Shown piece by piece: positions 11,593 to 60,142 of a stretch of DNA of 60,954 nucleotides. This DNA is from Thermoplasmata archaeon (GTDB taxonomy: Archaea > Thermoplasmatota > Thermoplasmata > Lutacidiplasmatales > UBA184). Within the stretch, counting starts at the first letter, position 1. The number at the start of each line of letters is the position of its first letter. The notes beneath the pieces were generated by a model. The model did not search any database and was not told the origin of the DNA. It saw only the letters and a list, made by a program, of their open reading frames with translations. The stretch spans positions 1-60,954 of the forward strand of contig JASHUJ010000075.1 of NCBI GenBank assembly GCA_030040035.1, read 5' to 3'. The translations under genes and the position numbers were made by a program.

Positions 11593-11595
11593 CTT

Positions 11596-12785: not shown

Positions 12786-12793
12786 GCTTGTCT

Positions 12794-12845: not shown

Positions 12846-12882
12846 GCGGAGCTCCCCCGTCGCATTCCCGACCCGAGGCTCC

Positions 12883-14118: not shown

Positions 14119-14136
14119 GGACCGCCTCTTCGATCC

Positions 14137-15546: not shown

Positions 15547-15704
15547 CGCAGTGTCCCGAGTGCGACGCGACCGTGGAGAACCCGACGATGATCGTGGGCG
15601 AGGTCTTCCCCTGCCCCGACTGCGGGACCGAGCTCGAGGTCAGTGGGCTCGAGCCGTTCGCCGTCGTCCTCGCTCCCCAGGAAGCCGAGGACTGGGGTGA
15701 GTGA
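15543..15704 (+). CDS. lysW: LysW/ArgW alpha-aminoadipate/glutamate carrier protein (53 aa, absent from the ORF track)
   Basis: ATGA overlap with the argH stop. MTQCPECDATVENPTMIVGEVFPCPDCGTELEVSGLEPFAVVLAPQEAEDWGE has a CxxC...CxxC zinc ribbon and the diagnostic acidic C-terminal EDWGE tail. Confidence 0.85.
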   Translation: MTQCPECDATVENPTMIVGEVFPCPDCGTELEVSGLEPFAVVLAPQEAEDWGE

Positions 15705-17570: not shown

Positions 17571-17578
17571 CCGCGGAC

Positions 17579-20584: not shown

Positions 20585-21428
20585 CGAACTCGCCGCTCCG
20601 CAGTTCGCGCATCGCGGTGGCGAGTTCGTCCGGCCGATTCATGACGATCGGACCGTACCAGGCGACCGGCTCGTGGAGCGGACGGCCCGTGACGAGGAGG
20701 AACCGAGCGCCCCGGTCGGACGCGTGCATCCGGACGGACACGCCGGGGGCGAACAGGGCGGTCTCCCCCCGGTCGAGTGGTTGGGCATCGCGGCCCTCGA
20801 ACGTCCCGACCCCTTCGATCCCGTGGACGAAGGCGGTGTGGTCCGGGTGGGTCGCGAGCTCGAACGAACCTCCGGCCGGGACCCGAACGTCGAGATACGT
20901 CGGATCGACGGGGATCCCCCGGACCGGGCCCTCGACGGCTCCGAACGTCCCGGCAACGACCTTGACCCGGCTCCCCGCGTCCGTCGTCACCTCGGGAATG
21001 TCGCCGGCGGAGAGGCCCCGGTACGCCGGGTCGCTCATCTTCTCCTTCGCGGGGAGATTGACCCAGAGCTGGAAACCGGACATCGGGCCCTCGGTGCGCT
21101 GCGGCATCTCCTGATGGATGATCCCACTGCCCGAGTTCATCCACTGAACATCGCCGGCGCCGATCACCCCCGAGTTGCCGAGCGTGTCGCCGTGGGCGAC
21201 CCGCCCGTCGAGCACGTAGGTGACGGTCTCGATGCCGCGGTGCGGGTGCCAGGGAAATCCGGCGAGATAGTCCGCCGGGTTCGACGAGCCGAACCGGTCC
21301 AGGAGCAGGAATGGGTCGAAGAGAGGCACTTCGGGGTTGGCGAACGACCGGCGGAGGCGCACGCCCGCGCCCTCCACGGTGGGAACGCCCGGAAATCGGT
21401 GGGCGATCGAACGTACGGGGTCGGGCAC
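20553..21428 (-). CDS. pirin-family protein
   Basis: GFPWHPHRGIETVTYVLDGRVAHGDTLGNSGVIGAGDVQWMNSGSGIIHQE. GTG at 21428 is preceded by gaggtaagg. The 3' end overlaps lysK convergently by 32 nt. Confidence 0.85.
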   Translation of the reverse strand: MPDPVRSIAHRFPGVPTVEGAGVRLRRSFANPEVPLFDPFLLLDRFGSSNPADYLAGFPWHPHRGIETVTYVLDGRVAHGDTLGNSGVIGAGDVQWMNSGSGIIHQEMPQRTEGPMSGFQLWVNLPAKEKMSDPAYRGLSAGDIPEVTTDAGSRVKVVAGTFGAVEGPVRGIPVDPTYLDVRVPAGGSFELATHPDHTAFVHGIEGVGTFEGRDAQPLDRGETALFAPGVSVRMHASDRGARFLLVTGRPLHEPVAWYGPIVMNRPDELATAMRELRSGEFVKHRRPIVEE

Positions 21429-21564
21429 TTTCCTTACCTCGCACCATCGAATTACTCGGAGTAACTTAAAGGGCGAGGGAAGTCCCGGCCACTTGCTGGT
21501 CCGCCGGCCGCGGGGACCACGGGCTCGAACCAATCCTAAAGCCGAGCAGAGGGTACCCCGCACG

Positions 21565-33555: not shown

Positions 33556-33762
33556 CCTAGGGCGGGCCCGGGAACCGGGGGACTCGAGGCGTCCGGCCGC
33601 CTGTCTCGAACCGGGGAGGAGTTCGGGTCGCTCTCTTCGCCGGCTCTCGCCGGCTGCTGACCTTCGGCGATCCCCCGGCACTCGCGACTCCCCAGGGACG
33701 GGGTTTAATTGCGCCACCGAAATCCTCGGGCGGAGTTCTGGCCGGTGTCGCATCACGCGCGG

Positions 33763-45814: not shown

Positions 45815-45947
45815 CGGATCGGCGGGCGGCGCCGGCCGCGAAGCTCCAAATACGTCGCAACCCTAGTACGCCTGGCTGTGGGGTCAGCCCGGCCCTCGTC
45901 CGAGGACCGAACCGCAGCGCGCTGCCAATGACCCCTGGGAAGAGGCA

Positions 45948-46430
45948 ATGCCCAGGGATACCGAAGCGCCACCGGAGTCGACGGCGACGAAAGGTCGGGA
46001 GCCGATGGCCCGGCCCCCCAGCGGGGGGACGTGGGTCCAGTTCTCCTCCTCGTTGAAAGAAGAGATCCGGCCGTGGATCGACCTCGACGAGGTCGAGATC
46101 GAAGGGTTCGAGACCTGGCTCCGGTCCGTGCTTCCGCTGATCCCTCGGGGCCCGTTCCACACGCCGGGCAAGCTGGCGACCGATCCGGTCCAACGGCTCT
46201 CCGAAGTGGCCCGCGCGCTGGCCGAGTGCGCCGGGGATCGGGCCCGGGCCAACTTCCAGGCCGCGACCTACTACCGGGAGAACCAGGTCCTGGCGCGTCG
46301 GGTCCGCGCGCTCGAAGCGGTCATCCGGACGACGGGATCGGACTCGGAGAAGGCGGCGCTGCTCGAGCCGGAGCCCGACGTGGACCAGGCGGCTTCGCGC
46401 TACATCCCGAAAGGCCGGGACGCGCTATGA
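45948..46430 (+). CDS. hypothetical protein
   Basis: 160-aa ORF whose stop overlaps the USP start (ATGA). No motif recognised. Confidence 0.4.
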   Translation: MPRDTEAPPESTATKGREPMARPPSGGTWVQFSSSLKEEIRPWIDLDEVEIEGFETWLRSVLPLIPRGPFHTPGKLATDPVQRLSEVARALAECAGDRARANFQAATYYRENQVLARRVRALEAVIRTTGSDSEKAALLEPEPDVDQAASRYIPKGRDAL

Positions 46431-46894
46431 GCGGCCCCGCTACCGCGTCGGGTCCTCCGTCGGCCGCCGCGCCCGCGCCGCCGGCCCGGATCGTGGTCGG
46501 GTTCGACGGATCGCCTCCCGCGAATCGCGCGGCCCGGCTCGCCCTCGCGCTCGCGCCGAGCGGAGCGGGGAACGTCTGGTTCGTGCATGCGACCCAGCCG
46601 GACCACCGGATGGCGGAGCCGCTCACGGACGAGGAGATCGTGGCCCCCAACCGCGCGGTGACGCGCGCGATGGAGTCGCTGCGCGCGTACGCCCAGCCCC
46701 GCGGCCTGTCGGCCTTCGTCGTCGATCGCGAGGGCGCCCCCGGCCCGGTGCTGATCGCGGTCGCGTCGGAGATCGGCGCGGAGCTGGTGGTCGTCGGGAC
46801 TCGGGGTCGAGGGGACGCGAGCCGGGTCCTCCTGGGTTCGGTGTCGGCGTACGTGGTGGCCCACGCGCCGGTACCGGTCGTCGTCGTCCCCTGA
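46427..46894 (+). CDS. universal stress protein (UspA family)
   Basis: IVVGFDGSPPANRAARLAL...AELVVVGTRGRGDASRVLLGSVSAYVVAHAPVPVVVV. Confidence 0.85.
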   Translation: MSGPATASGPPSAAAPAPPARIVVGFDGSPPANRAARLALALAPSGAGNVWFVHATQPDHRMAEPLTDEEIVAPNRAVTRAMESLRAYAQPRGLSAFVVDREGAPGPVLIAVASEIGAELVVVGTRGRGDASRVLLGSVSAYVVAHAPVPVVVVP

Positions 46895-46915
46895 GCGCGC
46901 GCCGTCGGGTCGCGG

Positions 46916-48190
46916 ATGGCGAACGACCGGGCGACGGCCCGTCCATCCGTTCGGATCCCGCATGACGTCTGGGCGGTCTCGATCACGAGCCTCTTCTCCG
47001 ATTGGAGCTACGAGATGCTCCTGCCCATCCTGCCGTTCTTTCTCGCCCTCGACCTCGGCGCCTCGCCGCTCGTCATCGGGTTCGTCGAGGGGGCCGCCGT
47101 TCTCGCCCAGAGCTGGACCCAGTTCGTCGCGGGACAGCGCCTCGCCGGCCGGGCGGATCGTCGGGCGGTCGGCACGGGCGGGTATGCAACCACGACCATC
47201 GCGCACGGGCTGGTCGCCCTCGCGACCGCCTGGCCGATCGCGGCCCTCCTCCGCGTCACCGCGTGGGGGGCGAGGGGCGAGCGACAACCGATCAAGAAGG
47301 CGATCCTCGCGGACGCCGCGGAGCCGGGCGCCCGCGGTCGTTCGTTCGGTCTCGAGCAGACGTTCGACTCCCTCGGAGCGGTCGGCGGCACGGCGTCGGC
47401 GGCGGTGCTGGTCGTCACCGACGGGCTCCCCGCGTTCCGATGGATCTTCGCGCTCAGCGTGCTGCCGGGGCTGGTCGCGGTCGTGCTCTTCTACCGCCTG
47501 GTCCGCGACCCGCCAGGGGCCAGCCGCGATGGACCGAGGGAAGCGGCCCGTCCTCCGCGGCCGTTCCCGCGACGGTTCCGCTGGTTCCTCGTCGCGGTCG
47601 CCGTCTTCGGTCTGGCGTACTTCAACATCCTGCTCGGTCTCCTGCGCGTCGGTACCGGCCTCCTCGCACCGGGAGGAGTCGGACCGGTCGGCGCGATCCT
47701 GGTCGCGCTCGTCGCGTACCTGCTCTACAATCTGGTCTACGCCGGCCTCTCCTATCCGGCCGGCCTCCTCGCCGTCCGATTTCCCGGGGCCGGTCTCGTG
47801 GGCGTGAGCTTCCTGCTCTTCGTGCCGGTCGACGTTCTCTTCGCGCTCACCCCGAGCGTGGGGGTCGCATTGGCCGCGTTCGGTCTCGCGGGGGCCCAGA
47901 TCGCGCTCGCCGACGTCACCACCTCGACGTGGATCGGCGGGACCGTCGACCCGGCCAGCCGGGGCCGGGCCTTCGGCTGGTTCGGGGCCGTCCAGGGAGC
48001 CGCCTCGTTGGGAGCGTCGGTGATCGTCGGCGGACTCTGGACGTACTACTCCGCGCCGGTGGCGTTCTCGGCGTCCGCGGTCCTGGCCGTACTCGGCGCC
48101 GCGTGCCTCCTGCCGATCCTCGGGAGGCGATCGGCAGGCGACGACGCCGGACCGCCCCGGGCCCCCGGCGGACGGCCCGCCGATCAATAG
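46916..48190 (+). CDS. MFS transporter
   Basis: 12-TM-type protein with SDWSYEMLLPILPFFL at the N-terminus. The 3' end overlaps the next gene convergently by 7 nt. Confidence 0.75.
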   Translation: MANDRATARPSVRIPHDVWAVSITSLFSDWSYEMLLPILPFFLALDLGASPLVIGFVEGAAVLAQSWTQFVAGQRLAGRADRRAVGTGGYATTTIAHGLVALATAWPIAALLRVTAWGARGERQPIKKAILADAAEPGARGRSFGLEQTFDSLGAVGGTASAAVLVVTDGLPAFRWIFALSVLPGLVAVVLFYRLVRDPPGASRDGPREAARPPRPFPRRFRWFLVAVAVFGLAYFNILLGLLRVGTGLLAPGGVGPVGAILVALVAYLLYNLVYAGLSYPAGLLAVRFPGAGLVGVSFLLFVPVDVLFALTPSVGVALAAFGLAGAQIALADVTTSTWIGGTVDPASRGRAFGWFGAVQGAASLGASVIVGGLWTYYSAPVAFSASAVLAVLGAACLLPILGRRSAGDDAGPPRAPGGRPADQ

Positions 48191-50187
48191 AACGCCGCGA
48201 CGTACATCACGACGAGCAGCACCACGATGAGGATGTACGCGAGATACCGACCGAGCCGTCCGGGCATCACCGCGGCCTTCAGCACCGCCGAGGTCCCCTG
48301 CCCGAGCCGGACGAGCGCCTCGTAGAACAGTTTGAAGGCGTCGAACACCTCGAGGTCCACGTTGTAGGCCGCGACGGGGTCGACGCCGGCGCCGCTCGAC
48401 TCGCCGGTCTCGGCCCGGACCTCCCGGGTCGACAGCACCGAGCGCATCATGATGCGGATCCCCGTGCCGTAGCCGAACGAGGTGTACGTCTCCCCCGGCT
48501 GCCCCGGGGGGCTTCCCGCCATCCAGATCGGCACGCGGCGTCGGGGGCGGGGACGACCGAGCGCGTAGTAGCCCGCCGCGACCGCCGCCCCGGCGACGAC
48601 GATGAACGGGATCATCGGCGGCGAGAGGATCCCGAACGGAGAGCCCGAGAGGATCGACCAGCCGTCGGGCACCGCGAGGAGCTGTCCCACGGGGGCCGCG
48701 ACCGAGCTCCCGGCGAAGCCCGAGACGGCGGGCGCGATGAACCGCAGGATCCAGGGCGCGAGGACGCCGATCGCGAGGACCATCGCCCCGACCGCCCCCA
48801 CGACCCCGCCGAGGCGCGACTCGGGCGGGCCCGCGCCCGAGGGCCGGGGGCGCCAGAGCATCGAGAAGCCGACGAACTTGACCATCGCGACCACGATCAG
48901 GCCCGCGGCGAGGGCCACCGCCGCACCGGCGAGGAGCCCCACGAACTCGACCCATGACTGACCGAAGCGGTACGATTGGAACAACGCCTCGAGCACCATC
49001 CACTCGCTCACGAATCCGGCGAGGGGCGGTCCGGCGGCCAGGCTGAGGGTGGCGATGATCGTGCCGCCGAACTCGCCCCGACTGCCCGATTTCGCCTGGC
49101 CCTCCACGGAGTTGAGGTCGAAGGTGTGCGCCGTGTGCTCGATGTACCCGGCGCTCAGGAAGAGGCCGGTCTTGGCGATCGCGTGGGCCAGGGCCTGGTA
49201 GAAGGCGGCGAAGAGCGCGAAGACGTAGAGTTCGTGCACCCCATCGCTCTGGGCGAGCAGGGCGACGCCCAGGGCGACGAGGATGAGACCGTTGTTCTCG
49301 ATGGTGCTGTAGGCCGGCAGGCCCTTCGAGTGCTCGCTCACGGCCGCGAAGAGGGCCCCGAGGAGGGCGGAGATCGCTCCGATCGCGAGGACCACGGCGC
49401 CCCACCAGAGCGGGGGGCTCGACAGGAGGCTCACGAGCCGGAAGAGCCCGTAGGCGCCCGCGAGCGTCAGGGTCGAGCTGAGGACCGCGGACGCGTTCGA
49501 CGGGGCCGAGGAATGCGCGATCGGGAGCCACTCGCTCAGATGGAACGGCGCGATGCCCATCTTGATCCCGAAGCCGAGCAGCCCCGCGACGAAGACCAGC
49601 GTCGCGAGGTCGCCCGGGCCGAGGTGCGGTCCGAAGGCGAAGACGCCGGTCCCGACGCGCAACCCGGCGAACGCGAGGGAGATGAACAGCGTGCTCGCTT
49701 CGCCGAACGCGAGAAAGACGAACGCGGCGGAGAAGATGCGCTCGCCCGGCCCCTTCGCCTGGAGGATCATGCCGTACGAGGCGAGGGTCATCGTCTCCCA
49801 GCCGATCAGGAACAGCACCTGATCCGAGGCGGCGATGAGGAGCGCGATCGAGCCGAGCGTCAGCGCGTACGTGATCGCGAGCAGCGGCGACCGCCGGTCG
49901 TCGTACGTCAGCGAATACACCGACGTGGCGACCCACACGAGCGCCGCGGCGAGCGCGAAGAACGCGGCGAGCGGGTCGAGCGTGAGGCCTTCCACGTCGC
50001 CGAGCGGGCCCGCCCACGTGGCGCCCGTCACGGAGCCGCCCGCGAGGACCAGGACCGCGACGATCCCGAGTCCCGCCGAACCGACGAGCGATCCGAGGTA
50101 CGGCCCGCGTCGGCCGAGCGGCCCCAGCGCCGCCCCGACGAAGAACGCGGCGACCGAGACCGTCAGGAGGAGCCCCGCCGGGTCCAT
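48184..50187 (-). CDS. NuoL/HyfB/MrpA-like antiporter-type membrane subunit
   Basis: 667 aa, ATG at 50187. GWETMTLASY...FGIKMGIAPFHLSEWLPIAHSSAPS. C-terminal amphipathic helix plus a terminal TM, like the NuoL lateral helix. Confidence 0.85.
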   Translation of the reverse strand: MDPAGLLLTVSVAAFFVGAALGPLGRRGPYLGSLVGSAGLGIVAVLVLAGGSVTGATWAGPLGDVEGLTLDPLAAFFALAAALVWVATSVYSLTYDDRRSPLLAITYALTLGSIALLIAASDQVLFLIGWETMTLASYGMILQAKGPGERIFSAAFVFLAFGEASTLFISLAFAGLRVGTGVFAFGPHLGPGDLATLVFVAGLLGFGIKMGIAPFHLSEWLPIAHSSAPSNASAVLSSTLTLAGAYGLFRLVSLLSSPPLWWGAVVLAIGAISALLGALFAAVSEHSKGLPAYSTIENNGLILVALGVALLAQSDGVHELYVFALFAAFYQALAHAIAKTGLFLSAGYIEHTAHTFDLNSVEGQAKSGSRGEFGGTIIATLSLAAGPPLAGFVSEWMVLEALFQSYRFGQSWVEFVGLLAGAAVALAAGLIVVAMVKFVGFSMLWRPRPSGAGPPESRLGGVVGAVGAMVLAIGVLAPWILRFIAPAVSGFAGSSVAAPVGQLLAVPDGWSILSGSPFGILSPPMIPFIVVAGAAVAAGYYALGRPRPRRRVPIWMAGSPPGQPGETYTSFGYGTGIRIMMRSVLSTREVRAETGESSGAGVDPVAAYNVDLEVFDAFKLFYEALVRLGQGTSAVLKAAVMPGRLGRYLAYILIVVLLVVMYVAAFY

Positions 50188-50188
50188 G

Positions 50189-50941
50189 TCAGTCCCCTCC
50201 GGCCGTCCGGGCGCGCCCGTGCACCCGCAGGATCGCGTCGAGGATCTCCACCGGGGCCGGGGGACACCCGGGAACAAAGACGTCGACCGGCACGAGCTCC
50301 TCCAAGCCGGCGAGGAGCCCCGGCGTCCCCGCGAACGCGCCGCCGCTGATCGGGCACACGCCGGCCGCGATCACCGCCTTCGGAGCGGGCAGGGCCTCGT
50401 ACGCGCGGAGGACGGCGGGCGCCATCTCGGGCGTGGGGATGCCCACGACGAGCAGGACATCCGCGTGGCGCGGGGAGCTGGTGAAGAAGATGCCCAGACG
50501 CTGCGAGTCGTAGAGCGGGTTCGCCAGCGCCAGGACCTCGAGATTGCAGGCATTGCAGCTGCCGGCGTCCACGAGGAAGACGTGCAGGGACCGGGGGAAC
50601 CCGACGAGCGGGGGCAGCGCCTCGACGAGGCCCGGGCCGGCCGGCGCGGCGGACCCGACGCGGAGCTCCGCCCGCCTCCCCGTCGAGGCTTCCACCGGAC
50701 CGCGGAACTCGAACCCGGCGGGCCGGCAGCGGGCGCAGCGAATGCACTTCCCTCGATCGAGCTCTTCCTCGGAGATCGCGCCGACGGGGCAGCGGGCGAC
50801 GCCGTCGTGCAGCGCCGCGTCGCCCCGGAGCGGGATGGGCGGCCGGGCGGTCTCGGGGACCTCGGCATCGGTCGCGGGCTCGGCCGGGTAGCGGCTCGTG
50901 ACGATGCCGTTCCGGGCCGCTTGTCCGATCCACGTCGGCAT
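50189..50941 (-). CDS. fusion of a single-cluster ferredoxin-like domain and a NuoB/HycG-like small subunit
   Basis: N-terminal CPVGAI...CIRCARC. C-terminal GSCNACNLE...GVCPISGG...PGCPP provides the four N2-type cluster cysteines. Confidence 0.85.
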   Translation of the reverse strand: MPTWIGQAARNGIVTSRYPAEPATDAEVPETARPPIPLRGDAALHDGVARCPVGAISEEELDRGKCIRCARCRPAGFEFRGPVEASTGRRAELRVGSAAPAGPGLVEALPPLVGFPRSLHVFLVDAGSCNACNLEVLALANPLYDSQRLGIFFTSSPRHADVLLVVGIPTPEMAPAVLRAYEALPAPKAVIAAGVCPISGGAFAGTPGLLAGLEELVPVDVFVPGCPPAPVEILDAILRVHGRARTAGGD

Positions 50942-50949
50942 CGTTCCCC

Positions 50950-52269
50950 CTACGCGTCGATCTCCGCGAAGACGAGGCCGAAGCTCTCCCACGCGAAGTG
51001 GAAATCGGTGAAGACGCCGTTGCGCAGTCCGCGGGCGAAGAGCGGGATGTTCGCCTGGCTCGCCGCGCGCATCCCGATCCGGGTCACCCGCCCATCCGAG
51101 GCCGTCACGTCGTAGACGAGGTCCCCGCTGGGGCTCTCGACCCGCGCGAGGCCCCGGCCCGGGGCGACCGGGGGGGCCGGCGAGAGGAGGCGGCCGGGAT
51201 CGCGGGGCCAGCGGTCGAGCATCTGCTCGAGCAGCAGGTAGCTCGACTGCACTTCGCGGGCCCGAACGAGCATGCGGGCGAGGGCATCTCCGGCCGACTC
51301 TTGCGACAGCTCGAGGAAGAGGTCGTTGTACGGCGTGACCGGCACGCGCAGCCGATCGTCCCACGCCACGCCGCACGCGCGCAAGGTCGGCCCGACGGCG
51401 CCCCAGCGCAGCGCCTCCTCGCGTCGCACGGGGCACGTCGCCTGGATCCGGTCGATGAACGTCCGGCTGCCGAGGAAGAGCTCCCAGAGGCGCTCGAACT
51501 GCTCCGAATGTAGGTTCAGCCGACGGCCGAGATCGCGCCGATCCGCCGCGTCGAGGTGCCGTCGGGGACCCCCCGGCAGGAGGGCGCCGAACAGCCATCG
51601 GTGACCGAAGATCGAGCCCTGGATGCGGAGCATCTCCTCCGCCAGCGCGTGCGTCTGGGCGGCGCCGACGTTCTGGCTCGCCGCCTCGGCCAGCCGGGCG
51701 AGCACGTGCACGTGGTTGTAGATCCGCTGCAGCTCCTGGGCGAGCGCCCGGACCCACAGTTCGCCCTCCGGCACTTCGATACCGGCTGCGCTCTCCGCCG
51801 CGGCGAGGTAGGCCGCGGCGTGGGCGGCCGAGAAGTTCCCGGCGAGCCGTTCGATGCGGAGCGCCCCGTCGGAAATGGGCTGCCCGGCGATCGACGTGAG
51901 GATCCGCCGCGACTTGAACCCCGTCACGGGTTCGAGGGAGAGGATCCGCTCGCCGTAGGTCCGGACCTCGAACTTCCCGCTCTCGGGCACCCCCATCGAG
52001 ACCGGCCCGTAGGGGAACGTGAAGATCCCGTACCCTTCGATCGTCTCCATCGGCCCGGCGGATCGGGTCAGTTCGGGCGTCCGGGACCGCTGCCAGGTCG
52101 CTCGGACCTCGGTGGGCACCGGGATCCGGATCCCGTGGCGAAGCACGGGCCGCCCCGTCGCGTAATCGTTGAACAGGGCGAACGTCGCGTCCTCGGGCGA
52201 GTACGCGAGCGCCCGTTCGGGGCCGTACGGATCGAACGGCTCCGTCTCGGAAGGCCGGACCGCGCTCAC
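50950..52269 (-). CDS. NuoD/[NiFe]-hydrogenase-large-subunit-like protein lacking all NiFe-ligand cysteines
   Basis: GTGA overlap at 52266-52269. GPVSMGVPESGKFEV..., ERLAGNFSAAH where group-4 hydrogenases have ERxCGxCxxxH. The C-terminus WESFGLVFAEIDA is NuoD-like, where DPCxxC is expected. Confidence 0.8.
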   Translation of the reverse strand: MSAVRPSETEPFDPYGPERALAYSPEDATFALFNDYATGRPVLRHGIRIPVPTEVRATWQRSRTPELTRSAGPMETIEGYGIFTFPYGPVSMGVPESGKFEVRTYGERILSLEPVTGFKSRRILTSIAGQPISDGALRIERLAGNFSAAHAAAYLAAAESAAGIEVPEGELWVRALAQELQRIYNHVHVLARLAEAASQNVGAAQTHALAEEMLRIQGSIFGHRWLFGALLPGGPRRHLDAADRRDLGRRLNLHSEQFERLWELFLGSRTFIDRIQATCPVRREEALRWGAVGPTLRACGVAWDDRLRVPVTPYNDLFLELSQESAGDALARMLVRAREVQSSYLLLEQMLDRWPRDPGRLLSPAPPVAPGRGLARVESPSGDLVYDVTASDGRVTRIGMRAASQANIPLFARGLRNGVFTDFHFAWESFGLVFAEIDA

Positions 52270-53702
52270 GGCGTCGAGCCTCCCAGGATCCGGGCGGCCG
52301 CGCCCAAGGCGCCCGAGAGGTAGGGGAGCGCGGCGACCCCGATCACGAGCGCCACGCCGACGTTGACGAACGCGATCCACGCCCCGTCCTCGGCCCCGGG
52401 ATGCGCCGGGCCGGGCGCGGCCGTCGGCTCGCCGAAGACCATGCGGCCGATCTGCGAGTTCACCCCGAGGAAGGCGATCAGGATCACGAGAGCGAGGAGC
52501 AGTGCCACGTCGTACCAGCCGGCCGCGAGCGCGCCCACGACGATGAGGAGCTCTCCGAGGAACGTCCCGAACGGCGGCGCGCCCGTGACCGCGAAGGCGG
52601 CCAGGATCCAGGCCCCGCTGGTGCGGGGCATCCGATGCCGGAGGTCCCGGACCTCGTCGATGCGGTTCGTGCCCGTCCCCCGCAGCACGTTGCCCGAGCA
52701 GTAGAACGCGGCCGACTTCGCGAACGCGTGGGCGACGAGCAGGACCAGGGCGCCGTAGAGCGCGACCCCCCCGAGGGCGAGCCCGACGACCGCGATGCCC
52801 ATGACCTCCATGCTCGAGTAGGCGAACAGCCGCTTGAACGACCGCTGGCGCTGGAGGAGGAACGCCCCCACGAACGCCGAGGTCAGGCCGAAGAGGATCA
52901 GGAGATCGGTGATCGCGGCCGGGGCCGGCCGGGGGAGGATCGCGTAGACCCGGGCGAACGTGTAGAGCGCGGTCGGGAGCAGCACGCCCGAGAACAACGC
53001 CGAGATCGGGGAGGGCGCTTCGGAGTGGGCATCCGGGAGCCACGAGTGCATGGGGAAGAGCCCGACCTTCGTCCCGTAGCCGACGAGGGCGAGCGCGACC
53101 GCCATCTCGATCGGGAGCGTCACCGCGGGGGGCGCGGCCGCGAGCGCGAACGCGTCGAGGGTGCCGGTCGTCGCGTAGATGAGGAGCAGCGCGAAGAGGG
53201 CGATCGTGAGGCCGGCCGAGGCGATCAGCGTGTAGCGCCAGGCCGCCTCGACGCTCGTCGGCTTGCGCTCGAGCACGATCAGGAGCGCGCTCGCGACGGT
53301 CGTCGCTTCGATCCCGATCCACATCAGACCGAGATCGGACACGACCAGCGTCGCGATCATCGCGAACGCGAAGGCGTGGAGGAGCGCGTAGTAGATCTGC
53401 GGTGTGAGGAACGGCCGGTGGACCGCCCGCAGGTACCCGTCCGAGTACCACGCCGACGTGGCGTAGATGCTGGTGACCATCACGAGGAACACCTCGCTGA
53501 GCGAGTCGAGCCCGAGGTACTCCCCCCAGCGGCCGCTGGCCCCCTCGACGAGGAGACCGAGCGCCGCGGCGAGGGCGACGAGGGACCCGATGCGCGCCGC
53601 GTCGCGCCCGACGGCGGGATACGGCACGAGCGCGAGGACCGCGCTCGCGGCCGGGGCGACGAGGAGCAGGAAGAGCCAGAGGGTGTCGAGCGCGTCGTTC
53701 AT
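52266..53702 (-). CDS. NuoN/NuoM/HyfF/MrpD-like antiporter-type subunit
   Basis: 478 aa polytopic. GYGTKVGLFPMHSWLPDAHSEAPSPISALFSG. Confidence 0.85.
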   Translation of the reverse strand: MNDALDTLWLFLLLVAPAASAVLALVPYPAVGRDAARIGSLVALAAALGLLVEGASGRWGEYLGLDSLSEVFLVMVTSIYATSAWYSDGYLRAVHRPFLTPQIYYALLHAFAFAMIATLVVSDLGLMWIGIEATTVASALLIVLERKPTSVEAAWRYTLIASAGLTIALFALLLIYATTGTLDAFALAAAPPAVTLPIEMAVALALVGYGTKVGLFPMHSWLPDAHSEAPSPISALFSGVLLPTALYTFARVYAILPRPAPAAITDLLILFGLTSAFVGAFLLQRQRSFKRLFAYSSMEVMGIAVVGLALGGVALYGALVLLVAHAFAKSAAFYCSGNVLRGTGTNRIDEVRDLRHRMPRTSGAWILAAFAVTGAPPFGTFLGELLIVVGALAAGWYDVALLLALVILIAFLGVNSQIGRMVFGEPTAAPGPAHPGAEDGAWIAFVNVGVALVIGVAALPYLSGALGAAARILGGSTP

Positions 53703-54346
53703 CCGGAGAGCTCCTCCAACGCCGACTCCTCGGGGGTGCCCGTCACGTCACGCTGGATCGAGAGGATCACGCCGACGAGCACGACCCCGAGGACGTCGAG
53801 AAAGACGACGGTCTCGACGAACAGCGGGAAGGCGTGCGCGTAGAGCGCGCCGGCGTAGACGATGGCGTTCTCTTCCTCGAGATACCCGATGACCTGGACG
53901 AGGGTGTTCGAGCGGGTCGCGAGCATCAAGAGTCCCTGGACGAGGAGCACGAACGGGAGCGCGGCGCCGACCTCGGGGAACCCGGACGCGAACGTCTGCT
54001 GGAACACGAACCACGCGATGATCGCGGCCGCGACGGCCGCGAGCGCGTGACCGGTCACCCGGTTCGCGGCGTGGATCTCGCGGAGGCGCCAGCGGAAGGC
54101 CCGGATCTGGCGGCGCAGGACGTACGGGATCACCAGGGCCCGGATGATGACCGTGAGGGCCGCGAGGACGAGCAGGTCGAGACTCTTCTCGGACCAAGCG
54201 AGCCAGCCCAGGAGAAGAGCGAGCAGCAGGGATTGGAGCGCGATCCCGCCGATCATCGGATCGACGAACGACTCCGACTGGAGGTAGAGGGCGGTGAGCA
54301 GGATGCCGACGCCCACCAGGGCGACGACCTCGGTCGAACCGTCCAT
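53699..54346 (-). CDS. HyfE/NuoK-like small membrane subunit
   Basis: 215 aa, about 6 TM. ATGA-type overlap with the next gene. Position and size match hydrogenase-4 component E. Confidence 0.7.
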   Translation of the reverse strand: MDGSTEVVALVGVGILLTALYLQSESFVDPMIGGIALQSLLLALLLGWLAWSEKSLDLLVLAALTVIIRALVIPYVLRRQIRAFRWRLREIHAANRVTGHALAAVAAAIIAWFVFQQTFASGFPEVGAALPFVLLVQGLLMLATRSNTLVQVIGYLEEENAIVYAGALYAHAFPLFVETVVFLDVLGVVLVGVILSIQRDVTGTPEESALEELSG

Positions 54347-55303
54347 CTAGGCCGCCCCCAGCACCGCGAAGGCGAAGACCGACAGGATCGCGAGGGAGAA
54401 CGACAGGGCGAGGTAGTCCCGGATCTTGAACAGGCGGACCTTCGCGATCGTCGCCTCGATGACCGCGAGGCCGCCCATCAGCGCGAGCAGCTTGGCGAAC
54501 AACACCCCGATGTTGATCGTCGCGTCGAGGAGCGTCGGTTGGGCGAAGAGGCCCCACGGGGCCGCGAAGACGTTCAGGAAGACGGCGCAGAGGAGGAACT
54601 GCTTCATCCAGCCGTTCCAGCGCAGGATGCCGAGCAGCCGGCCCGAGTGCTCGAACAGGCGCCCGTCCTCGAGCATTCCGAATTCCATCAGCCCCGCGCT
54701 CTCCACGGGCAGGCGACCGATCTCGGCCAGGAGCAACAGGAAGAACGCGCCGGTCACGAGGAGGTGCGTTGGGGAGAGATACGCCGAGCTCGAGGAGGTC
54801 AGCAGGTTGTTCGTGACGTACGGGTTGTTCGTCCCGGTGATCACGGCGACCGCGAAGAAGACGACGATGAGGGTCGGCTCGCCGAACGCCGCGAACGACA
54901 CCGTCCGACTGGCCCCGAGGGCGGCGTAGTTACTGCCCGAGTCCAGGGCCGCCAGGAGGGTCAGCGTCCCGGCGAGGGCGAACATCAGCCCGCCGCCCAG
55001 AAAGTCGACGGTGGAGGCGAAGGGGATCGGATACGGGGTGATGATGGGCACGACGATCGAGATGAGCAGGTACGCGCCGAACGCGAGGATCGGGGCGATC
55101 ACGAAGACCGCCGACGAGCCGTCCGGAACCAGGGTGTCCTTCCGCAGATACTTGGCGAGATCGAAGTACGGCTGGAAGATCGAAGGACCCCGTCGGGACT
55201 CGGTCCACGCCTTCCACCGCGCCGACACCCCCGCCAGGAGCGGCGAGAGGAGGAGCACCGTCGCGGCCTGCAGGACGTTGACCGCTTGCTCGGTCGCGTT
55301 CAC
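54347..55303 (-). CDS. NuoH/HycD/HyfC-like membrane subunit
   Basis: GTG at 55303. SPLLAGVSARWKAWTESRRGPSIFQPYFDLAKYLRKD is typical of HycD/NuoH N-termini. Confidence 0.85.
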   Translation of the reverse strand: MNATEQAVNVLQAATVLLLSPLLAGVSARWKAWTESRRGPSIFQPYFDLAKYLRKDTLVPDGSSAVFVIAPILAFGAYLLISIVVPIITPYPIPFASTVDFLGGGLMFALAGTLTLLAALDSGSNYAALGASRTVSFAAFGEPTLIVVFFAVAVITGTNNPYVTNNLLTSSSSAYLSPTHLLVTGAFFLLLLAEIGRLPVESAGLMEFGMLEDGRLFEHSGRLLGILRWNGWMKQFLLCAVFLNVFAAPWGLFAQPTLLDATINIGVLFAKLLALMGGLAVIEATIAKVRLFKIRDYLALSFSLAILSVFAFAVLGAA

Positions 55304-55307
55304 CTTG

Positions 55308-55331
55308 CCTACTCCCCGTTTCGAGAGTAGG
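55308..55331 (-). promoter_or_regulatory. 5'-leader hairpin covering the SD-like GAGUAGG of the complex's first gene
   Basis: CCTACTC (55308-55314) pairs with GAGTAGG (55325-55331), with a 10-nt loop. On the mRNA the purine-rich arm ends 4 nt before the GTG start. Confidence 0.3.
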
Positions 55332-55480
55332 CGTCATTGGCCCGAGGGCGGTTTGCCGGGGGACCCGGCCGGCGGACGCCTCCGCCGACCGTTTAGGAAA
55401 CGCAGCAGTACTTAGGCGTGGCGCTGCGGCTCCCCGAGGGAGCCGAGCGGAACCAGCTTTCCCCCACCCGTCCGAGGGTT

Positions 55481-56143
55481 CTACCGCCCGTCGAGCCCCT
55501 CGACCTCACCGAGCACCGAGATCCTCGCGTCGGTGACTTCCAGGCGACGGATCGAGCCGGTCGGAACCTCTAGCTCCCACATTCCACCCGCGGCCAAGCC
55601 CGCCGCGTGCGCGAGGACCAGCCGGATCGGGACATCGTGCGTCACCGCCACGATCTCGGCACCGTCGTTGCGGAACGCGATCCGGTGCAACGCCCGCAGC
55701 ACCCGATCCGCGGCGGAGCGAACCAGCTCTCCGCCCGGTGGACTGACCTCCGTGGGATCCGAGAGAAACTTCCGGTAGAGGTCGCCGTCCGTTCGCGCCA
55801 CCTCGTCGGGCGTGCGTCCGCTCCACGACCCGTAGTCGAGGTCCCGGAGGTCCGGCTCCACGTTCACGTTGAGCGCGTGCGGCGACGCGATCGCCGCGGC
55901 GGTCTCCTGGGCCCGGGCCAGCGGGCTCGAGCAGATCTCCCGGAGAACGACGTCCCTCAGTCGACCCGCGGCCCGGTCGGCCTCCGCCCTTCCGACTCCG
56001 TCGAGCGAAGGGTTCTCGCGGCCCCGAAATCGCCCTTGCGCGTTGAGCGGTGTGCGTCCGTGCCGCACGAGGTGAACGAGACAGCCCCGGTGCGGCGCAC
56101 GAACCTCGGTCGCATCGCGGGTGGTCATGTCCCCGGCTTCCAA
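55481..56143 (-). CDS. histidine phosphatase family protein (PGM/cobC-like)
   Basis: LVHLVRHGRTPLNAQGRFRGR (RHG motif) ... AVTHDVPIRL. Confidence 0.8.
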   Translation of the reverse strand: MEAGDMTTRDATEVRAPHRGCLVHLVRHGRTPLNAQGRFRGRENPSLDGVGRAEADRAAGRLRDVVLREICSSPLARAQETAAAIASPHALNVNVEPDLRDLDYGSWSGRTPDEVARTDGDLYRKFLSDPTEVSPPGGELVRSAADRVLRALHRIAFRNDGAEIVAVTHDVPIRLVLAHAAGLAAGGMWELEVPTGSIRRLEVTDARISVLGEVEGLDGR

Positions 56144-56446: not shown

Positions 56447-56992
56447 ATGACTTCGGAGAGCCCCCGGAAGCCCGGTCGGGCGGGCTCGCCCGGTGGGGAC
56501 TTCCCCGCGCATATCGAGGTACGAGATGAGGAAATCCGCGTCGTGGTCGCCGTCGCGATCCAGCGCGAAGGGCGAGTGCTCGTCATCCGGGAGGAGGACG
56601 AACCGGACCATCACGCGTGGGTGTTTCCCCAGGGGTATCCGAAACCGGGCGAGGGCCTCGCCGAGGCCGCCCGACGCGAGGCGTTCGAGGAACTCGGCCT
56701 GGACGTGGAGCTCGACGGGCTGCTCGGGGTGTACGAGGGCTTCTCGGAACCCGGGGTCGAACCCCGAATTCACCGGGTGACCATCTGCTACCGGGCCCAC
56801 CCCGTCCAGAACGCGACGCCCCGGGCGAGTCGCGAGGCGATCGACTCGGCGTGGATCGACCCCGCCTCGATCGCCCCGGCCTCGATGCCCTCGATCCGGC
56901 GCCCGCTCGAGGATCTCCGAGCGAGTTCTCCTGCCGCAGGTCGACGACCCCGGCGCCCGTCCGGCACGGCTCGCCGCGCGGTCACGCCGTGA
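56447..56992 (+). CDS. NUDIX hydrolase
   Basis: Nudix box GYPKPGEGLAEAARREAFEELGL. ATG at 56447 within track ORF 56402..56992. Confidence 0.8.
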   Translation: MTSESPRKPGRAGSPGGDFPAHIEVRDEEIRVVVAVAIQREGRVLVIREEDEPDHHAWVFPQGYPKPGEGLAEAARREAFEELGLDVELDGLLGVYEGFSEPGVEPRIHRVTICYRAHPVQNATPRASREAIDSAWIDPASIAPASMPSIRRPLEDLRASSPAAGRRPRRPSGTARRAVTP

Positions 56993-58496
56993 GCGATGCG
57001 CCCGACTCCGCCGGGCCGAAGACCTGACGGTACAGGTCGAATCCGAAGCCGGTGGGCAGAGGCTCCCCCGGCACGATGCGGAAGGTCCGGTGTCCCTCCG
57101 GGGAACGCTCGGCCCGTAGGAAGAGGGCCCGTTCGGGCTCGATCCGCCGAAGTCGGTCGGCGAGGTCGAAGAAGTGCGTGACCAGCACGACCCGGACGCC
57201 GCCATCCAGGAACGCCCGGAGGACGGTCTCGGCGATCTCCGAACCCTCTCGCTCGTTCGTGGAGGCGAAGGACTCGTTGGCGAGCAGGAGGCTGCCGGGT
57301 CGAAGGTGACCCGCGATCGCGCGCATGCGGTCGAGCTCCTCCTCGAACTTGCCGCTCGTCATCGTCGCATCCTCCTCCCGACGGAAGTGAGTAAAGACCC
57401 CGCGGGGAACGCTCGTCGAGAATCGCCGGGCGGGGACGGACAATCCGGCTTGGGCGAGGAGGACCGCGAGGCCGACGCTGCGCAGGAACGTCGACTTTCC
57501 GCCTTGGTTGGCGCCGGTGATGACCACGAGCGGGCGGGACGCGACGTCGAGATCGTTGGGCACGACCGTCGTTCGTCCGCCGAGCGCCAAGGAGAGGTCG
57601 TACAGACCTTGGGCCGAGAGCCCGAACGGGGACGGATCGAGGGGCTCGGGAACGCAGACCGGCAGGCCGGCGCCGACGAGGCGGGCGTGCAGGTTCGCCC
57701 CGCCGAGATAGAAATCGAGCTCATCGCGCAACTGGGTGAAGAAGGCGTGCAACCGCGCGGTCGATTGCCGCAGGGCCTGCGCGCTCGACGCCACCCCGTG
57801 GTCGCGCAGCTCCGAGAGCGCGCGGCGTCCGGCCTCGTCCCGCTCCCCGAGCTCGAACGAGAAGGGGGACCGCCGGCCGACGAACGGGAGCCGCAGCCAG
57901 CGCCGTCGTTCCTCGGGCGGGCGTCGCAGGGAGTACTCCGAACCGCGGTTGCCCGCTCCGAGACGGAGGGCGAGCAACGTTCCACGAGGGAATCGAAGCT
58001 GGCGGAGGAGGTCCTCGACCGACCGGAAGTACGTCTCGTCGAGGTCCGTCGCCACACCTGAGAACAGGCGCTGGAATCCCTCCGAGCGGAACGCGGCTCC
58101 CTGGGTGACGGCCAGCTCCCGCAGCCGCCGCAGCCTCGGAAGGAGCAGCGCCAGGAGCTTCGTCCCTCGATAGAGGACCGACTCCGGGGACTCCCCGAAC
58201 CCCCAGACCTCCCGCTCGTCGCCGAGGGCCCCGAGCGCGAGCGCCCGGAGTTCGGCCACGGCCGGGGCCCGGGCCAGGCAATCCGCGAAGATCGCCTGCC
58301 GATAACGCACCGTGGCGGGCGGCGGGGGATCCGCGAGCAGTACCGAGCGGGCGACGGTCTGTACGTGATCGTCCCCACCGCCCATCACCGAGAGGGTGGA
58401 CTCGAGTTCGAGGTCCCGGATCAAGGCTGCGTCGAACGGACCCGTCGTTGCCCCCCCGTCGAACTCGCGATCCGGTGCCAGGAGGTGGACTCTCAT
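56982..58496 (-). CDS. MutS-like ABC ATPase, paralogue B (domain V only, no mismatch-binding or nuclease domain)
   Basis: ATGA overlap at 58493-58496. VVITGANQGGKSTFLRSVG, LLLANESFASTN, VLVTHFFDL. It is the 3' part of track ORF 56982..59678. Confidence 0.8.
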   Translation of the reverse strand: MRVHLLAPDREFDGGATTGPFDAALIRDLELESTLSVMGGGDDHVQTVARSVLLADPPPPATVRYRQAIFADCLARAPAVAELRALALGALGDEREVWGFGESPESVLYRGTKLLALLLPRLRRLRELAVTQGAAFRSEGFQRLFSGVATDLDETYFRSVEDLLRQLRFPRGTLLALRLGAGNRGSEYSLRRPPEERRRWLRLPFVGRRSPFSFELGERDEAGRRALSELRDHGVASSAQALRQSTARLHAFFTQLRDELDFYLGGANLHARLVGAGLPVCVPEPLDPSPFGLSAQGLYDLSLALGGRTTVVPNDLDVASRPLVVITGANQGGKSTFLRSVGLAVLLAQAGLSVPARRFSTSVPRGVFTHFRREEDATMTSGKFEEELDRMRAIAGHLRPGSLLLANESFASTNEREGSEIAETVLRAFLDGGVRVVLVTHFFDLADRLRRIEPERALFLRAERSPEGHRTFRIVPGEPLPTGFGFDLYRQVFGPAESGASLTA

Positions 58497-60142
58497 GATC
58501 CGAACCGCTCGCGGAGCGCCTCGTACGTGAGCCCATGCTTGCGGGCGAGGGCGAACGCGTATGCGCGCCCGTCCGCCGGTTGGCGAATGAGCCGGTACGT
58601 TCGTACCGCCGGGTCGTCGGGCCGGACCGTGCTCACGACGCTGACGACCGAGGGCGCGAGCGTGGACAGCTCGTCCAGGAACGTCACGTACACGCACCGC
58701 GCCCCCCGGTCGATCACCCGACGCAGGATCTCCTCTCCGAGGTGCAGCCCGTCCTGTACCGTCGCCGAACCGAACGTCTCGTTCAGCACGAGGACGCTGC
58801 GGGGGGTGGCCCGGTCGAGGATCGCCCGCAATCGGACGAGCTCGTCGAGGAGCTTTCCCCGCAGGTCCGCGACCGCTTCGCCCCGCTCGAAGTGGGTGTA
58901 CACCCGGTCGCAGAGCGCCAGGCGGACCGACTCGCCCGGGACCGGCCCTCCCAACGCGGCCAGGTGGTGGAGCTGCCCGAACATCCGGGCGAACGTCGTC
59001 TTGCCGCCGTTGTTGGGCCCGGTGACGACGAGGATCCGTTCGGTGGCTGAGAGCTGGACGTCGTTCGGGACGATCGGCATCGCTCGCTTCGAAAACTGAA
59101 GGGCGAGCGCGAGGTCGAACGTCGCACGAGCCGACACCTCGATCGTGCCGTCGAGGATCTCCGGGTACGAGCAGATCCGCCCGTCCCCCCGCAGCTTCGC
59201 CACCGCGTCGAGATACGCGAGGAAGAACTGGATCTCCCGGTCCAATCGCGCGACGCCCGGATCGACGAACTCGGGATGGCGGCTCGGGTACTCCCGGAGC
59301 CGGGCGAACTCCCGGGGGAAGAGCAGGGCGACCCGTTCCTGGATCGACTCTTCCACGTGGTTCATCTCCGGGTGGTCCGGGAAGCGGTACCCCTTGTCCG
59401 GAATGGGTTCGTCCCGGAAGCGGCGGAAGGCGCCGTCGATCTCCCGGCCGAGATCCGGATCGTCCGCGAACGGTCGGACGGTGATGCGGTCGCCTTGGAT
59501 CAGCAGGCCGTATCGGACGCGCGACAGCTCGTCCACCAGTTGGCGGGTCTCCGACTCGAGTTGGCGGTAGGCGGGCGAGGATCGATATCCGCGCAGGAAG
59601 GTCGCGGTCGATCGGAACCCGTCCGAAGCGGGCGAGATCCGATCGAGCGCGTCGGAGAGCTCGCGGATGGCGCGGCAATACTGGTCGGCGGCCTCGAGGA
59701 ACCAGCGGGCCCGTTGGAACTCGTTGCGCATCTTGGTCGACCGGTCACGGGCCGCCCGCATCGTGCGCAGCGCGGCCGCGAATCCGTCGGCCGATGCGCG
59801 CACTTCGGGTCGCTCGAGGTCCCGGAAGACCGCCTGACGGTACTGCACGTCCCGAGCCCTCAGGAGGGGGGCCGAGAAGATTCCGAGGAGGTCGTACTCC
59901 TCGCGTCCGGTCGTGATCGTCCTGAACGCCTGGTCGAGGTTGAGATCCGTCAGGACGGTCGCATCGGCCGTCGGGGGGGGCGTGTACGGGGCGGGCCCGA
60001 GGAGGCTCGCCGCTTCGATGGTTCGGTCCCGATCGCCGCGGCCGGGCCCGTCGGACGCGGCGACGGTCGAGCCCCGAGGTGCCGATCCCCGGGGCTCGAG
60101 GTCAGAGGGTTGTGGCCGCGACGTGTCGACCCTCGCGGTCAT
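58493..60142 (-). CDS. MutS-like ABC ATPase, paralogue A (domain V only)
   Basis: LVVTGPNNGGKTTFARMFG, VLVLNETFGSAT, CVYVTFLDELS. The N-terminal ~330 aa is helical. Confidence 0.8.
   Translation of the reverse strand: MTARVDTSRPQPSDLEPRGSAPRGSTVAASDGPGRGDRDRTIEAASLLGPAPYTPPPTADATVLTDLNLDQAFRTITTGREEYDLLGIFSAPLLRARDVQYRQAVFRDLERPEVRASADGFAAALRTMRAARDRSTKMRNEFQRARWFLEAADQYCRAIRELSDALDRISPASDGFRSTATFLRGYRSSPAYRQLESETRQLVDELSRVRYGLLIQGDRITVRPFADDPDLGREIDGAFRRFRDEPIPDKGYRFPDHPEMNHVEESIQERVALLFPREFARLREYPSRHPEFVDPGVARLDREIQFFLAYLDAVAKLRGDGRICSYPEILDGTIEVSARATFDLALALQFSKRAMPIVPNDVQLSATERILVVTGPNNGGKTTFARMFGQLHHLAALGGPVPGESVRLALCDRVYTHFERGEAVADLRGKLLDELVRLRAILDRATPRSVLVLNETFGSATVQDGLHLGEEILRRVIDRGARCVYVTFLDELSTLAPSVVSVVSTVRPDDPAVRTYRLIRQPADGRAYAFALARKHGLTYEALRERFGS

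Follow-up and report, generated by a model that had tools for sequence, protein, structure and literature searches.

A fluoride-riboswitch-type leader precedes the operon of a hydrogenase-related complex without NiFe ligands in a soil Thermoplasmata archaeon

The 60,954-nucleotide contig JASHUJ010000075.1 of a Thermoplasmata archaeon (assembly GCA_030040035.1; "the window" below means this whole stretch) encodes at 52269..50950, on the minus strand, a homologue of the group-4 [NiFe]-hydrogenase large subunit in which every cysteine that would hold the NiFe site has been replaced. This raises the question of what a hydrogenase-like complex does without the hydrogenase active site. As judged by its motifs and partner genes, the protein, which we call EhrL, is the non-NiFe large subunit of a six-subunit energy-converting hydrogenase-related (Ehr) complex in a high-GC soil Thermoplasmata archaeon. 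Its operon is led by a variant of the fluoride riboswitch, and the link between fluoride riboswitches and Ehr operons is strongly supported as a genomic association. A candidate answer is that the complex might be a fluoride-induced ion pump. The Ehr class owes its name to Marreiros et al. 2013 (cited through PMC6349859 and PMC10432482); published accounts describe its members as devoid of NiFe ligands, as probably using a redox reaction to move ions across the membrane, and as complexes to which no function has been assigned (PMC6349859, PMC10284858, PMC4758237). Ehr complexes have been noted in ammonia-oxidising archaea (PMC10432482) and, as 'putative group 4 hydrogenases lacking the Ni-binding motifs', in acid-mine Thermoplasmatales (PMC3750248); they have also been reported in comammox Nitrospira and in Margulisbacteria.

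The EhrL gene begins with a GTG at 52269 that shares the letters GTGA with the stop codon of the gene upstream; it ends with a stop at 50950, and its product has 439 amino acids. Since the window is 70% G+C, long spurious open reading frames are abundant on both strands; the plus-strand reading of 50950-52269 was rejected as stop-free high-GC noise. In HMMER alignments to solved structures, the N-terminal ERLAGNFSAAH lies opposite ERMCGICSFSH of MbhL and DRVCGICGFAH of HycE, and the C-terminal ESFGLVFAEIDA aligns opposite SLDPCYSCTDR of HycE/HyfG, so that the four ligand cysteines are replaced by A143, F146, V433 and E436. The group-4 motif RxCGxCxxxH is absent, with a cysteine at either position in none of 35 family members, and FGLVFAE stands in place of DPCxxC. 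The region of the GYxHRGxEK motif reads GFKSRRILT. Instead, ESFGLVFAEIDA resembles the NuoD signature (S/T)(I/L)D(F/V)V(M/F)(S/G)(D/E)(V/I)DR and also NuoD ..DVVFGEIDR. The quinone-binding residues of NuoD are missing as well: the tyrosine (Y87 of Thermus thermophilus, Y273 of E. coli) aligns to G144, which is invariant in the family, and the histidine (H38 / H224) aligns to P95, a proline in at least 90% of the family. The original prediction, made from the letters alone, had read all NiFe-ligand cysteines as replaced, with LAGNF for RxCGxC, a NuoD-like SFGLVFAEIDA for DPCxxC and GFKSRRILT for GYxHRGxEK, and had concluded that the protein could bind no NiFe site and was no canonical quinone-pocket NuoD. 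The alignments, including those of the C-terminus against HycE and NuoD, bear out these readings, and the four ligands are absent from EhrL and its 35 aligned relatives alike. On these substitutions, EhrL is predicted to be unable to ligate NiFe.

Both sequence and structure tie EhrL to the group-4 large subunits. Complex1_49kDa was the sole Pfam domain above threshold (9.5e-32), with a faint match to NiFeSe_Hases. Among solved structures the top match was Pyrococcus furiosus MbhL (3.7e-31 with the single sequence, 2e-39 with the family profile), followed by E. coli HycE (4e-25 and 5e-33, respectively) and then by MbsL, NdhH and NuoD. An AlphaFold2 model of EhrL (pLDDT, the predicted local distance difference test, 87.8; pTM, the predicted template-modelling score, 0.91) shows the NiFe-hydrogenase/NuoD fold, and Foldseek returned HycE (7z0s_E) as its best match at TMq 0.79, with E. 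coli NuoCD at 0.77 and NuoD chains at 0.70-0.73. The group-4 fold is paired with a NuoB-like [4Fe-4S] small subunit, the neighbouring gene product, which has four invariant HycG-type cysteines. Residues invariant among the 35 aligned relatives include E96, R141, G144, H150, E428, S429, G431 and D438; E96, one of the invariant residues of the pocket, aligns with E21 of MbhL, which we take to be the proton-relay glutamate of Mbh. EhrL also carries a family-specific N-terminal extension of ~80 amino acids, made of three strands and a helix. A comparison with NuoC by hhalign found no sequence similarity past the shared first strand, and at the sequence level we rejected the extension as a NuoC remnant. 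Foldseek template-modelling (TM) scores were slightly higher for C/D-fused targets; in structural terms, the N-terminus of the model may be a vestige of NuoC.

The loss of the cysteines is a property of the whole family. A search of 5.8 billion proteins gave at least 197 EhrL relatives of ~440 amino acids at 57-80% identity, and those with an organism name come from metagenome-assembled genomes labelled 'Thermoplasmata archaeon'. The 35 that were aligned have no cysteine at any of the four ligand positions, while mean column identity is 70% and ~100 columns are invariant. Scanning 1.84 billion 50%-identity representatives with HMMER gave 180 matches below 1e-30, and only 23 of the 150 best of these representatives keep all four cysteines. 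Because relatives lack the cysteines too, their loss is ancient and fixed, and is not the product of a frameshift or a sequencing error; with the same substitutions recurring across assemblies, we rejected both sequencing error and pseudogene. In a neighbour-joining tree (353 columns, 152 sequences, 200 bootstraps, computed in numpy), the EhrL family received 100% bootstrap support, as did a clade of 38 short, NuoC-less and Cys-less representatives. All members of this short clade that could be named or placed are archaeal (Nitrososphaerota, other Thermoplasmatota and Stygiolobus caldivivus), and EhrL identity is 42-49% to the Nitrososphaerota, the nearest outgroup and the Ehr of PMC10432482, and 34-38% to other Thermoplasmatota. 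Around it, a clade of 94 Cys-less members (83% bootstrap) holds not a single four-Cys sequence.

With the NuoD/49-kDa subunit of complex I, EhrL shares the fold (TM 0.70-0.77), the Complex1_49kDa domain and the C-terminal VFxE(I/V)D. It lacks, however, the quinone Tyr and His, lies outside a nuo operon and is further from NuoD in sequence than from the hydrogenases; given the missing residues, the operon content and the phylogeny, we rejected EhrL as a bona fide NuoD. The two ways in which the original prediction might have failed, four cysteines recovered through a frameshift or error and clustering within NuoD, thus did not come about: the cysteines are absent across 35 relatives, MbhL and HycE are the closest sequences, EhrL falls inside the Cys-less clade, and no reference in the tree lies further away than E. 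coli NuoCD. Its placement of the protein in a grey zone that is neither NiFe enzyme nor NuoD is likewise supported by the motifs, the Hyc/Hyf affinities and the neighbour-joining clades. By sequence, then, EhrL is a group-4-like large subunit with neither NiFe ligands nor a canonical quinone site, that is, a member of the Ehr class, and its clade is the NuoC-less archaeal Ehr already noted in ammonia oxidisers and acid-mine Thermoplasmatales. As this class has been described before, the complex is of a known kind.

EhrL is encoded by the fourth of six genes in a minus-strand operon (55303..48184) of the order H-E-F-L-S-B. The first gene (54347..55303) encodes EhrH, a NuoH/HycD-like membrane subunit (Pfam NADHdh 3.5e-31; best E. 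coli match HycD) in which the equivalents of NuoH D63, R148, E157, D213, K274 and R293 are invariant. EhrE (53699..54346, minus) is a HyfE-like membrane subunit (NCBIfam hydrogenase-4 membrane subunit, 7.6e-11), and the alignment shows that its C-terminal half is NuoK-like, with conserved NuoK-type carboxylates. The two antiporter-type subunits are the HyfF-like EhrF (52266..53702, minus; Pfam Proton_antipo_M 2.6e-54; 39% identity to HyfF) and, at the end of the operon, the HyfB-like EhrB (48184..50187, minus; NCBIfam hydrogenase-4 subunit B 3.5e-113). Both keep the glutamate of transmembrane helix 5, the lysine of helix 7 and the glutamate of helix 12: E132, K212 and E384 of EhrF are invariant in 54 sequences, while for EhrB all 49 sequences have E131 and K209, and 48 of them have E395. 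The small subunit EhrS (50189..50941, minus; Pfam Oxidored_q6; 45% identity to HycG, N-terminal part matching HycF at 1.6e-4) is a fusion of a HycF-remnant domain with a HycG/NuoB-like domain. Its residues 1-72 resemble the start of HycF and retain the motif CP...CxxCxxC, with all four ligands needed for one ferredoxin-type cluster, and the HycG-like part supplies the ligands of the proximal cluster as CxxC...C...CPP. All eight cysteines are invariant in 59 sequences from two phyla, including Nitrososphaerota and distant Thermoplasmatota.

The gene content is that of an Ehr operon, with NuoB-like, NuoH-like and Mrp/antiporter-like subunits, and it resembles hyf rather than a nuo cluster with NuoA, C, I, J and K; a Pfam scan found no NuoA, NuoC, NuoI or NuoJ equivalent in the operon. 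For each of the six products the best E. coli match was a Hyc/Hyf protein and never the Nuo paralogue. The order H-E-F-L-S-B was identical in 64 of 64 genome loci, and a further 65 metagenome loci had either this order or F-L-S-B-H-E. As far as such affinities allow, the complex is best described as a descendant of Hyf/Hyc-type group-4 hydrogenases. Within the 61-kb window we found no gene for NuoC or NuoEFG, none for a formate dehydrogenase, and neither hyp nor hycI.

Ahead of the operon, at 55395..55321 (minus), lies a variant fluoride-riboswitch (RF01734) aptamer that ends 18 nt 5' of the start codon of the first Ehr gene. It scored 31.4 bits with the Rfam model (E 8e-5 for the whole window) and 104.5 bits with R1, a covariance model that we built from the Ehr leader. 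In the leader, P1 (GGCG/CGCC) is joined by an additional hairpin, inserted ahead of the AAC junction, and by P2 and a perfect 7-bp pseudoknot (AGGCGUC:GACGCCU); it aligns full-length to the Rfam model, with P1, P2 and the loop-to-tail pseudoknot in consensus register. Across 36 orthologous leaders, 94.6-94.8% of cells were paired, compared with 28-50% in slid controls. The inserted hairpin showed double-sided changes at five of its six pairs, and the pseudoknot was invariant. The aptamer is followed by a hairpin at 55304..55332 (minus; minimum-free-energy fold, z = -4.07), in which GCCUACUC pairs with GAGUAGGC. This hairpin shares GCCU with the 3' pseudoknot strand, buries a Shine-Dalgarno-like GGAG ~10 nt before the GTG start, and is 98% paired across the 36 leaders, with two covarying pairs. 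We infer from this arrangement that the leader is a translational ON switch with the hairpin as its expression platform. The leader had been missed in the original prediction, and it adds physiological context to a complex whose substrate, as stated there, is still without assignment. In addition, a conserved GGCTAAGTA / CCTAAGTA element was seen at 55396-55425 (minus), ~25 nt upstream of the riboswitch, and also in related loci, with AT-rich TATA-like boxes at the equivalent place in hot-spring loci. The GGCTAAGTA / CCTAAGTA element is probably the promoter, and the aptamer would therefore be at the very 5' end of the mRNA.

The leader is not confined to the window; about a hundred relatives have one before the operon. 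R1 matched upstream of the operon in all 40 loci of the Thermoplasmata family with upstream DNA (51-114 bits), and a riboswitch descriptor with an explicit pseudoknot check gave 76 matches in family loci compared with 2 on shuffled sequence. We extended the comparison to 65 hot-spring metagenome loci of the NFWE/NHWE subclade, found by a search with a 16-sequence alignment. Among the 49 of these with an intact operon start, the descriptor, for which shuffled DNA yields 2-3 matches, matched directly upstream of the first gene in 41, and all 11 loci sampled with Rfam passed the gathering score (35.5-62.5 bits). Of the eight descriptor-negatives, L091, together with two near-identical loci, scored 42.3 bits and L117 scored 31 bits with Rfam; the remaining leaders looked riboswitch-like by eye. 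Even in the distant NuoC-fused Cys-less clades, a riboswitch preceded the operon in four of the five that were testable, with loci L138, L141 and L143 passing the gathering score and L137 recognised by the descriptor only. No paper in the searchable literature was found to link Ehr, or hydrogenase-like complexes without NiFe ligands, with fluoride, and the fluoride-riboswitch leader before Ehr is new here. A different arrangement was observed in seven Nitrososphaerota loci (L053, L054, L057, L059, L061, L062 and L067), which share a palindrome, TGTAACAnnAGTTACA, placed ~150-200 nt ahead of the gene that opens the Ehr operon; in most of these loci TTTAATTA(C) comes after the palindrome. These are probably a transcription-factor site (TGTAACAnnAGTTACA) and a TATA box (TTTAATTA), and would therefore point to different regulation in ammonia oxidisers.

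Fluoride-regulon genes also surround the operon. A canonical fluoride riboswitch (RF01734; 56269..56331, plus; 41.6 bits with Rfam, whose gathering score is 34) sits 1 kb from where the Ehr operon starts, upstream of a gene assigned by its domain to the NUDIX hydrolases (56447-56992, plus). A second leader of the Ehr type was found at 45865..45944 (plus; R1 25.1 bits, E 3e-6; Rfam 20.4 bits, local E 0.0016); it is the same inserted-hairpin variant, with a compensatory pseudoknot (GGGGUC:GACCCC), and weaker R1 matches occupy the same position in ~30 related loci, before an operon for a small protein and Usp that is convergent to the Ehr operon. In the window, domain scans place in this convergent stretch (46005..48190, plus) a small conserved protein followed by Usp and a major facilitator superfamily (MFS) transporter, the latter two at 46493-48190. 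The small protein belongs to a family of 110-160 amino acids without a Pfam match, which recurs behind riboswitches in L025, L039, L041 and many syntenic loci; Usp and a ~160-amino-acid protein are syntenic in L001/L003, and Usp and MFS genes also adjoin distant Ehr operons. Directly upstream of the Ehr leader, domain scans identified a histidine-phosphatase-family gene (55481..56143, minus) and, beyond the NUDIX gene, two MutS-domain-V genes (56982-58496 and 58493-60142, both minus). Similar genes recur elsewhere, and crcB, enolase, Usp and MutS-like genes are frequent neighbours of Ehr operons. In the hot-spring loci L100/L102, the Ehr operon is followed by a riboswitch that drives a MutS-V protein (L100 10453-11976), and paired genes with only MutS domain V adjoin Ehr both in the window and in the distant bacterial-type locus L137 (19991-21500). 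There, a NuoC-fused Cys-less Ehr is followed by Usp, MFS, enolase, DUF190, CrcB, His_Phos_1 and two MutS_V genes (6942-21500), the histidine-phosphatase family thus also adjoining crcB; the island in the window is this set minus enolase, DUF190 and CrcB, plus the riboswitch-controlled NUDIX gene. L141 has a divergent enolase gene with its own riboswitch.

Elsewhere in the window we observed a 1332-amino-acid protein made almost entirely of Kelch/beta-propeller repeats (33709-37707, plus; Pfam 2e-154) and a LysW-type arginine/lysine biosynthesis cluster (12883-20584, plus) with genes for argininosuccinate synthase and lyase, a LysX-like ATP-grasp protein, a semialdehyde dehydrogenase, an amino-acid kinase, an aminotransferase and an M20 peptidase. 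At 4277-5679 (minus), a geranylgeranyl reductase gene is followed by one for a 63-amino-acid ferredoxin with two [4Fe-4S] clusters, possibly a dedicated electron-donor pair.

Compared with published Ehr complexes, the one described here has the same Cys-less, group-4-like large subunit and the same NuoB-like, NuoH-like and antiporter-like partners. Its clade differs in having no NuoC-like domain, in the one-cluster HycF remnant fused to the HycG-like subunit and in the fluoride riboswitch ahead of the operon. E. coli Hyf/Hyc (7Z0S), with HycE as the best structural match, is alike in gene content and in the order hyfC-E-F-G-(H/I) plus hyfB, although the hyfB counterpart has shifted to the operon end in the window; the window operon, however, is without NiFe ligands, HyfA/HycB, HyfD, a formate dehydrogenase partner and nearby maturation genes, while E. 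coli hyc/hyf are without a riboswitch. P. furiosus Mbh (6CFW) has a NiFe site; no solved structure matches EhrL better by sequence than its MbhL, and the glutamate E21 is kept in EhrL. The Mbs/Mbx complexes have an Mrp-type multi-subunit membrane arm and reduce sulfane sulfur. MbsL (6U8Y) is, like EhrL, no NiFe hydrogenase subunit, and Mbs/Mbx keeps vestigial cysteines (PMC4758237). The match of EhrL to MbsL (6u8y_L, 2e-26) is weaker than those to MbhL or HycE, and the membrane arm is of Hyf type with four subunits only; we rejected membership in Mbx/Mbs on these two points. The leader shares aptamer architecture, pseudoknot and ON-switch logic with the RF01734 regulon, and differs from it by the inserted hairpin, changed consensus nucleotides and a sub-threshold score. 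Gene classes listed for that regulon include 'formate hydrogen lyase', mutS, Usp, enolase, crcB and antiporters (PMC2864571, PMC11139923); crcB-motif RNAs were noted before 'formate hydrogen lyase' and mutS genes (PMC2864571), and formate hydrogen lyase, among the commonest fluoride-riboswitch-associated enzymes, was read as a sign of a metabolic shift (PMC11139923). The riboswitch-controlled 'formate hydrogen lyase' operons that we inspected all encode Cys-less Ehr and not hydrogenlyases.

What might such a complex do under fluoride? At low pH, hydrogen fluoride (HF) passes membranes; by dissociating within the cell it lowers the cytoplasmic pH and runs down the proton-motive force. The fluoride response consists of exporters and, very often, Na+/H+ antiporters, the second commonest riboswitch-controlled gene class (PMC11139923). 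We propose, at a probability of about 0.5, that Ehr would be an ion pump, induced by fluoride and dependent on Fe-S clusters, that serves pH and ion homeostasis, a proposal in which pump activity and acceptor are read from the subunits. The charged ion-translocation residues of complex I are kept in the NuoH-like, the NuoK-like and the two antiporter-like subunits, and EhrS keeps all ligands for two [4Fe-4S] clusters. Fluoride binding would free the ribosome-binding site and turn translation on. A soluble low-potential donor, presumably ferredoxin, would then feed the exposed cluster of the HycF remnant and, from there, the HycG-type cluster, and electrons would go on to an acceptor chamber built by EhrL, EhrS and EhrH. 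The leading candidate for the acceptor is a membrane quinone, which the NuoD-like C-terminus makes plausible, yet its canonical ligands are missing. The energy released could expel H+ (or Na+), which would offset the acid load and the loss of proton-motive force from HF influx, much as the Na+/H+ antiporters of the fluoride regulon do. EhrL would act as the coupling and chamber subunit of the pump rather than as a hydrogenase.

Several observations weigh against this proposal. The leader in the window falls under the Rfam gathering score of 34 and departs from the consensus at conserved positions (GAUGG to GGAGG, CUGAUGA to CCAAUGA). One distant Cys-less clade (L140) has no riboswitch, and neither do the Ehr orthologues of Nitrososphaerota (0 of 7). 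The comparison with four-Cys enzymes comes down to E. coli hyc/hyf, which have no riboswitch, as three other four-Cys contigs end before the operon start; E. coli nuo has no riboswitch either. Among the neighbouring genes no electron-input partner (formate dehydrogenase, NuoEFG, carbon monoxide dehydrogenase or hyp) was found, and an acceptor could likewise not be identified. Finally, between the window and loci L004-L052, EhrH is 70-88% identical, EhrL 57-72% and EhrS 49-71%, and this lower conservation of EhrL and EhrS than of the membrane subunits would also fit a degenerating redox arm. In complex I the reverse is usual, the peripheral arm being more conserved than the membrane arm.

One could instead regard the complex as a stripped-down complex I, a housekeeping ferredoxin:quinone oxidoreductase with a quinone pocket of other residues, for which the fluoride link would be secondary. 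The likeness of LVFAEIDA to NuoD xVFGEIDR, the valine and acidic residue at the third and fourth cysteine positions and the retained Fe-S ligands would suit such an enzyme. Ehr carriers, moreover, are mostly quinone-containing and often aerobic archaea, in which the route of ferredoxin re-oxidation is unsettled. On the other hand, the quinone Tyr and His have become Gly and Pro, there are no equivalents of NuoA/C/I/J, and riboswitch control is near-universal and extends to islands with crcB and enolase; a stress-induced role is therefore favoured over a constitutive one, and we consider the housekeeping enzyme unlikely, though worth keeping in view. Somewhat less likely still is a redox-inactive, Mrp-like cation/proton antiporter in which the EhrL/EhrS arm is left over from the hydrogenase ancestor as a relic with a structural or regulatory part. 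Eight cluster-ligating cysteines that are invariant in 59 sequences from two phyla, and ~100 invariant EhrL columns that include residues lining the former active site, are difficult to reconcile with a relic, even though EhrL and EhrS show lower conservation than the membrane subunits, neither an input module nor a recognisable acceptor site is present, and Na+/H+ antiporters are a major class of the fluoride regulon (PMC11139923). The operon also encodes a NuoH-like subunit. To our knowledge, such a subunit occurs only together with a peripheral arm, which counts against the antiporter.

The fluoride link itself could hold for the relatives only, if the leader of the soil Thermoplasmata had drifted from fluoride sensing towards another ligand or none. 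Its sub-threshold score, the changed loop and junction nucleotides and the inserted hairpin are what such drift would leave behind. Yet the leader occupies the same position as canonical, threshold-passing leaders before orthologous operons, its pseudoknot is perfectly complementary and invariant, a paralogous copy carries compensatory changes, the platform logic is intact, and only 1 kb separates it from a canonical riboswitch within an island of typical fluoride-regulon genes. We regard drift as improbable, a shade more so than the antiporter. Far less credible than any of these is a working hydrogenase, with other metal ligands or with cysteines lost through error, or else a pseudogene or assembly artefact. 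Relatives are indeed annotated automatically as 'Ni,Fe-hydrogenase III large subunit' or as 'formate hydrogenlyase', but the same substitutions occur in 35 of 35 family members and in dozens of independent assemblies, there are no frameshifts, conservation is strong, and the window is without hyp, hycI and formate dehydrogenase genes.

Whether the fluoride-induced ion pump proposed for the window can be extended to the class is a more tentative matter. It is possible, though we would not assume it, that Cys-less Ehr complexes are largely a defence against fluoride and HF stress, as Fe-S-driven H+ (or Na+) pumps under fluoride riboswitches. If so, the 'formate hydrogen lyase' class of the fluoride regulon would be Ehr and not an H2-evolving enzyme, and this relative of complex I would have been retained in acidophilic archaea and several bacterial lineages under pressure from fluoride and acid stress rather than for the sake of hydrogen or energy metabolism. 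Our results suggest that 'formate hydrogen lyase' in fluoride-regulon lists, read there as a shift to fermentation, is mislabelled. Ehr complexes are widespread and intermediate between membrane-bound hydrogenases and complex I, and the riboswitch link makes their function experimentally approachable. The operon would be a naturally inducible, minimal six-subunit relative of complex I for mechanistic work. For the organisms that carry it, the link shows how acidophiles might cope with HF influx.

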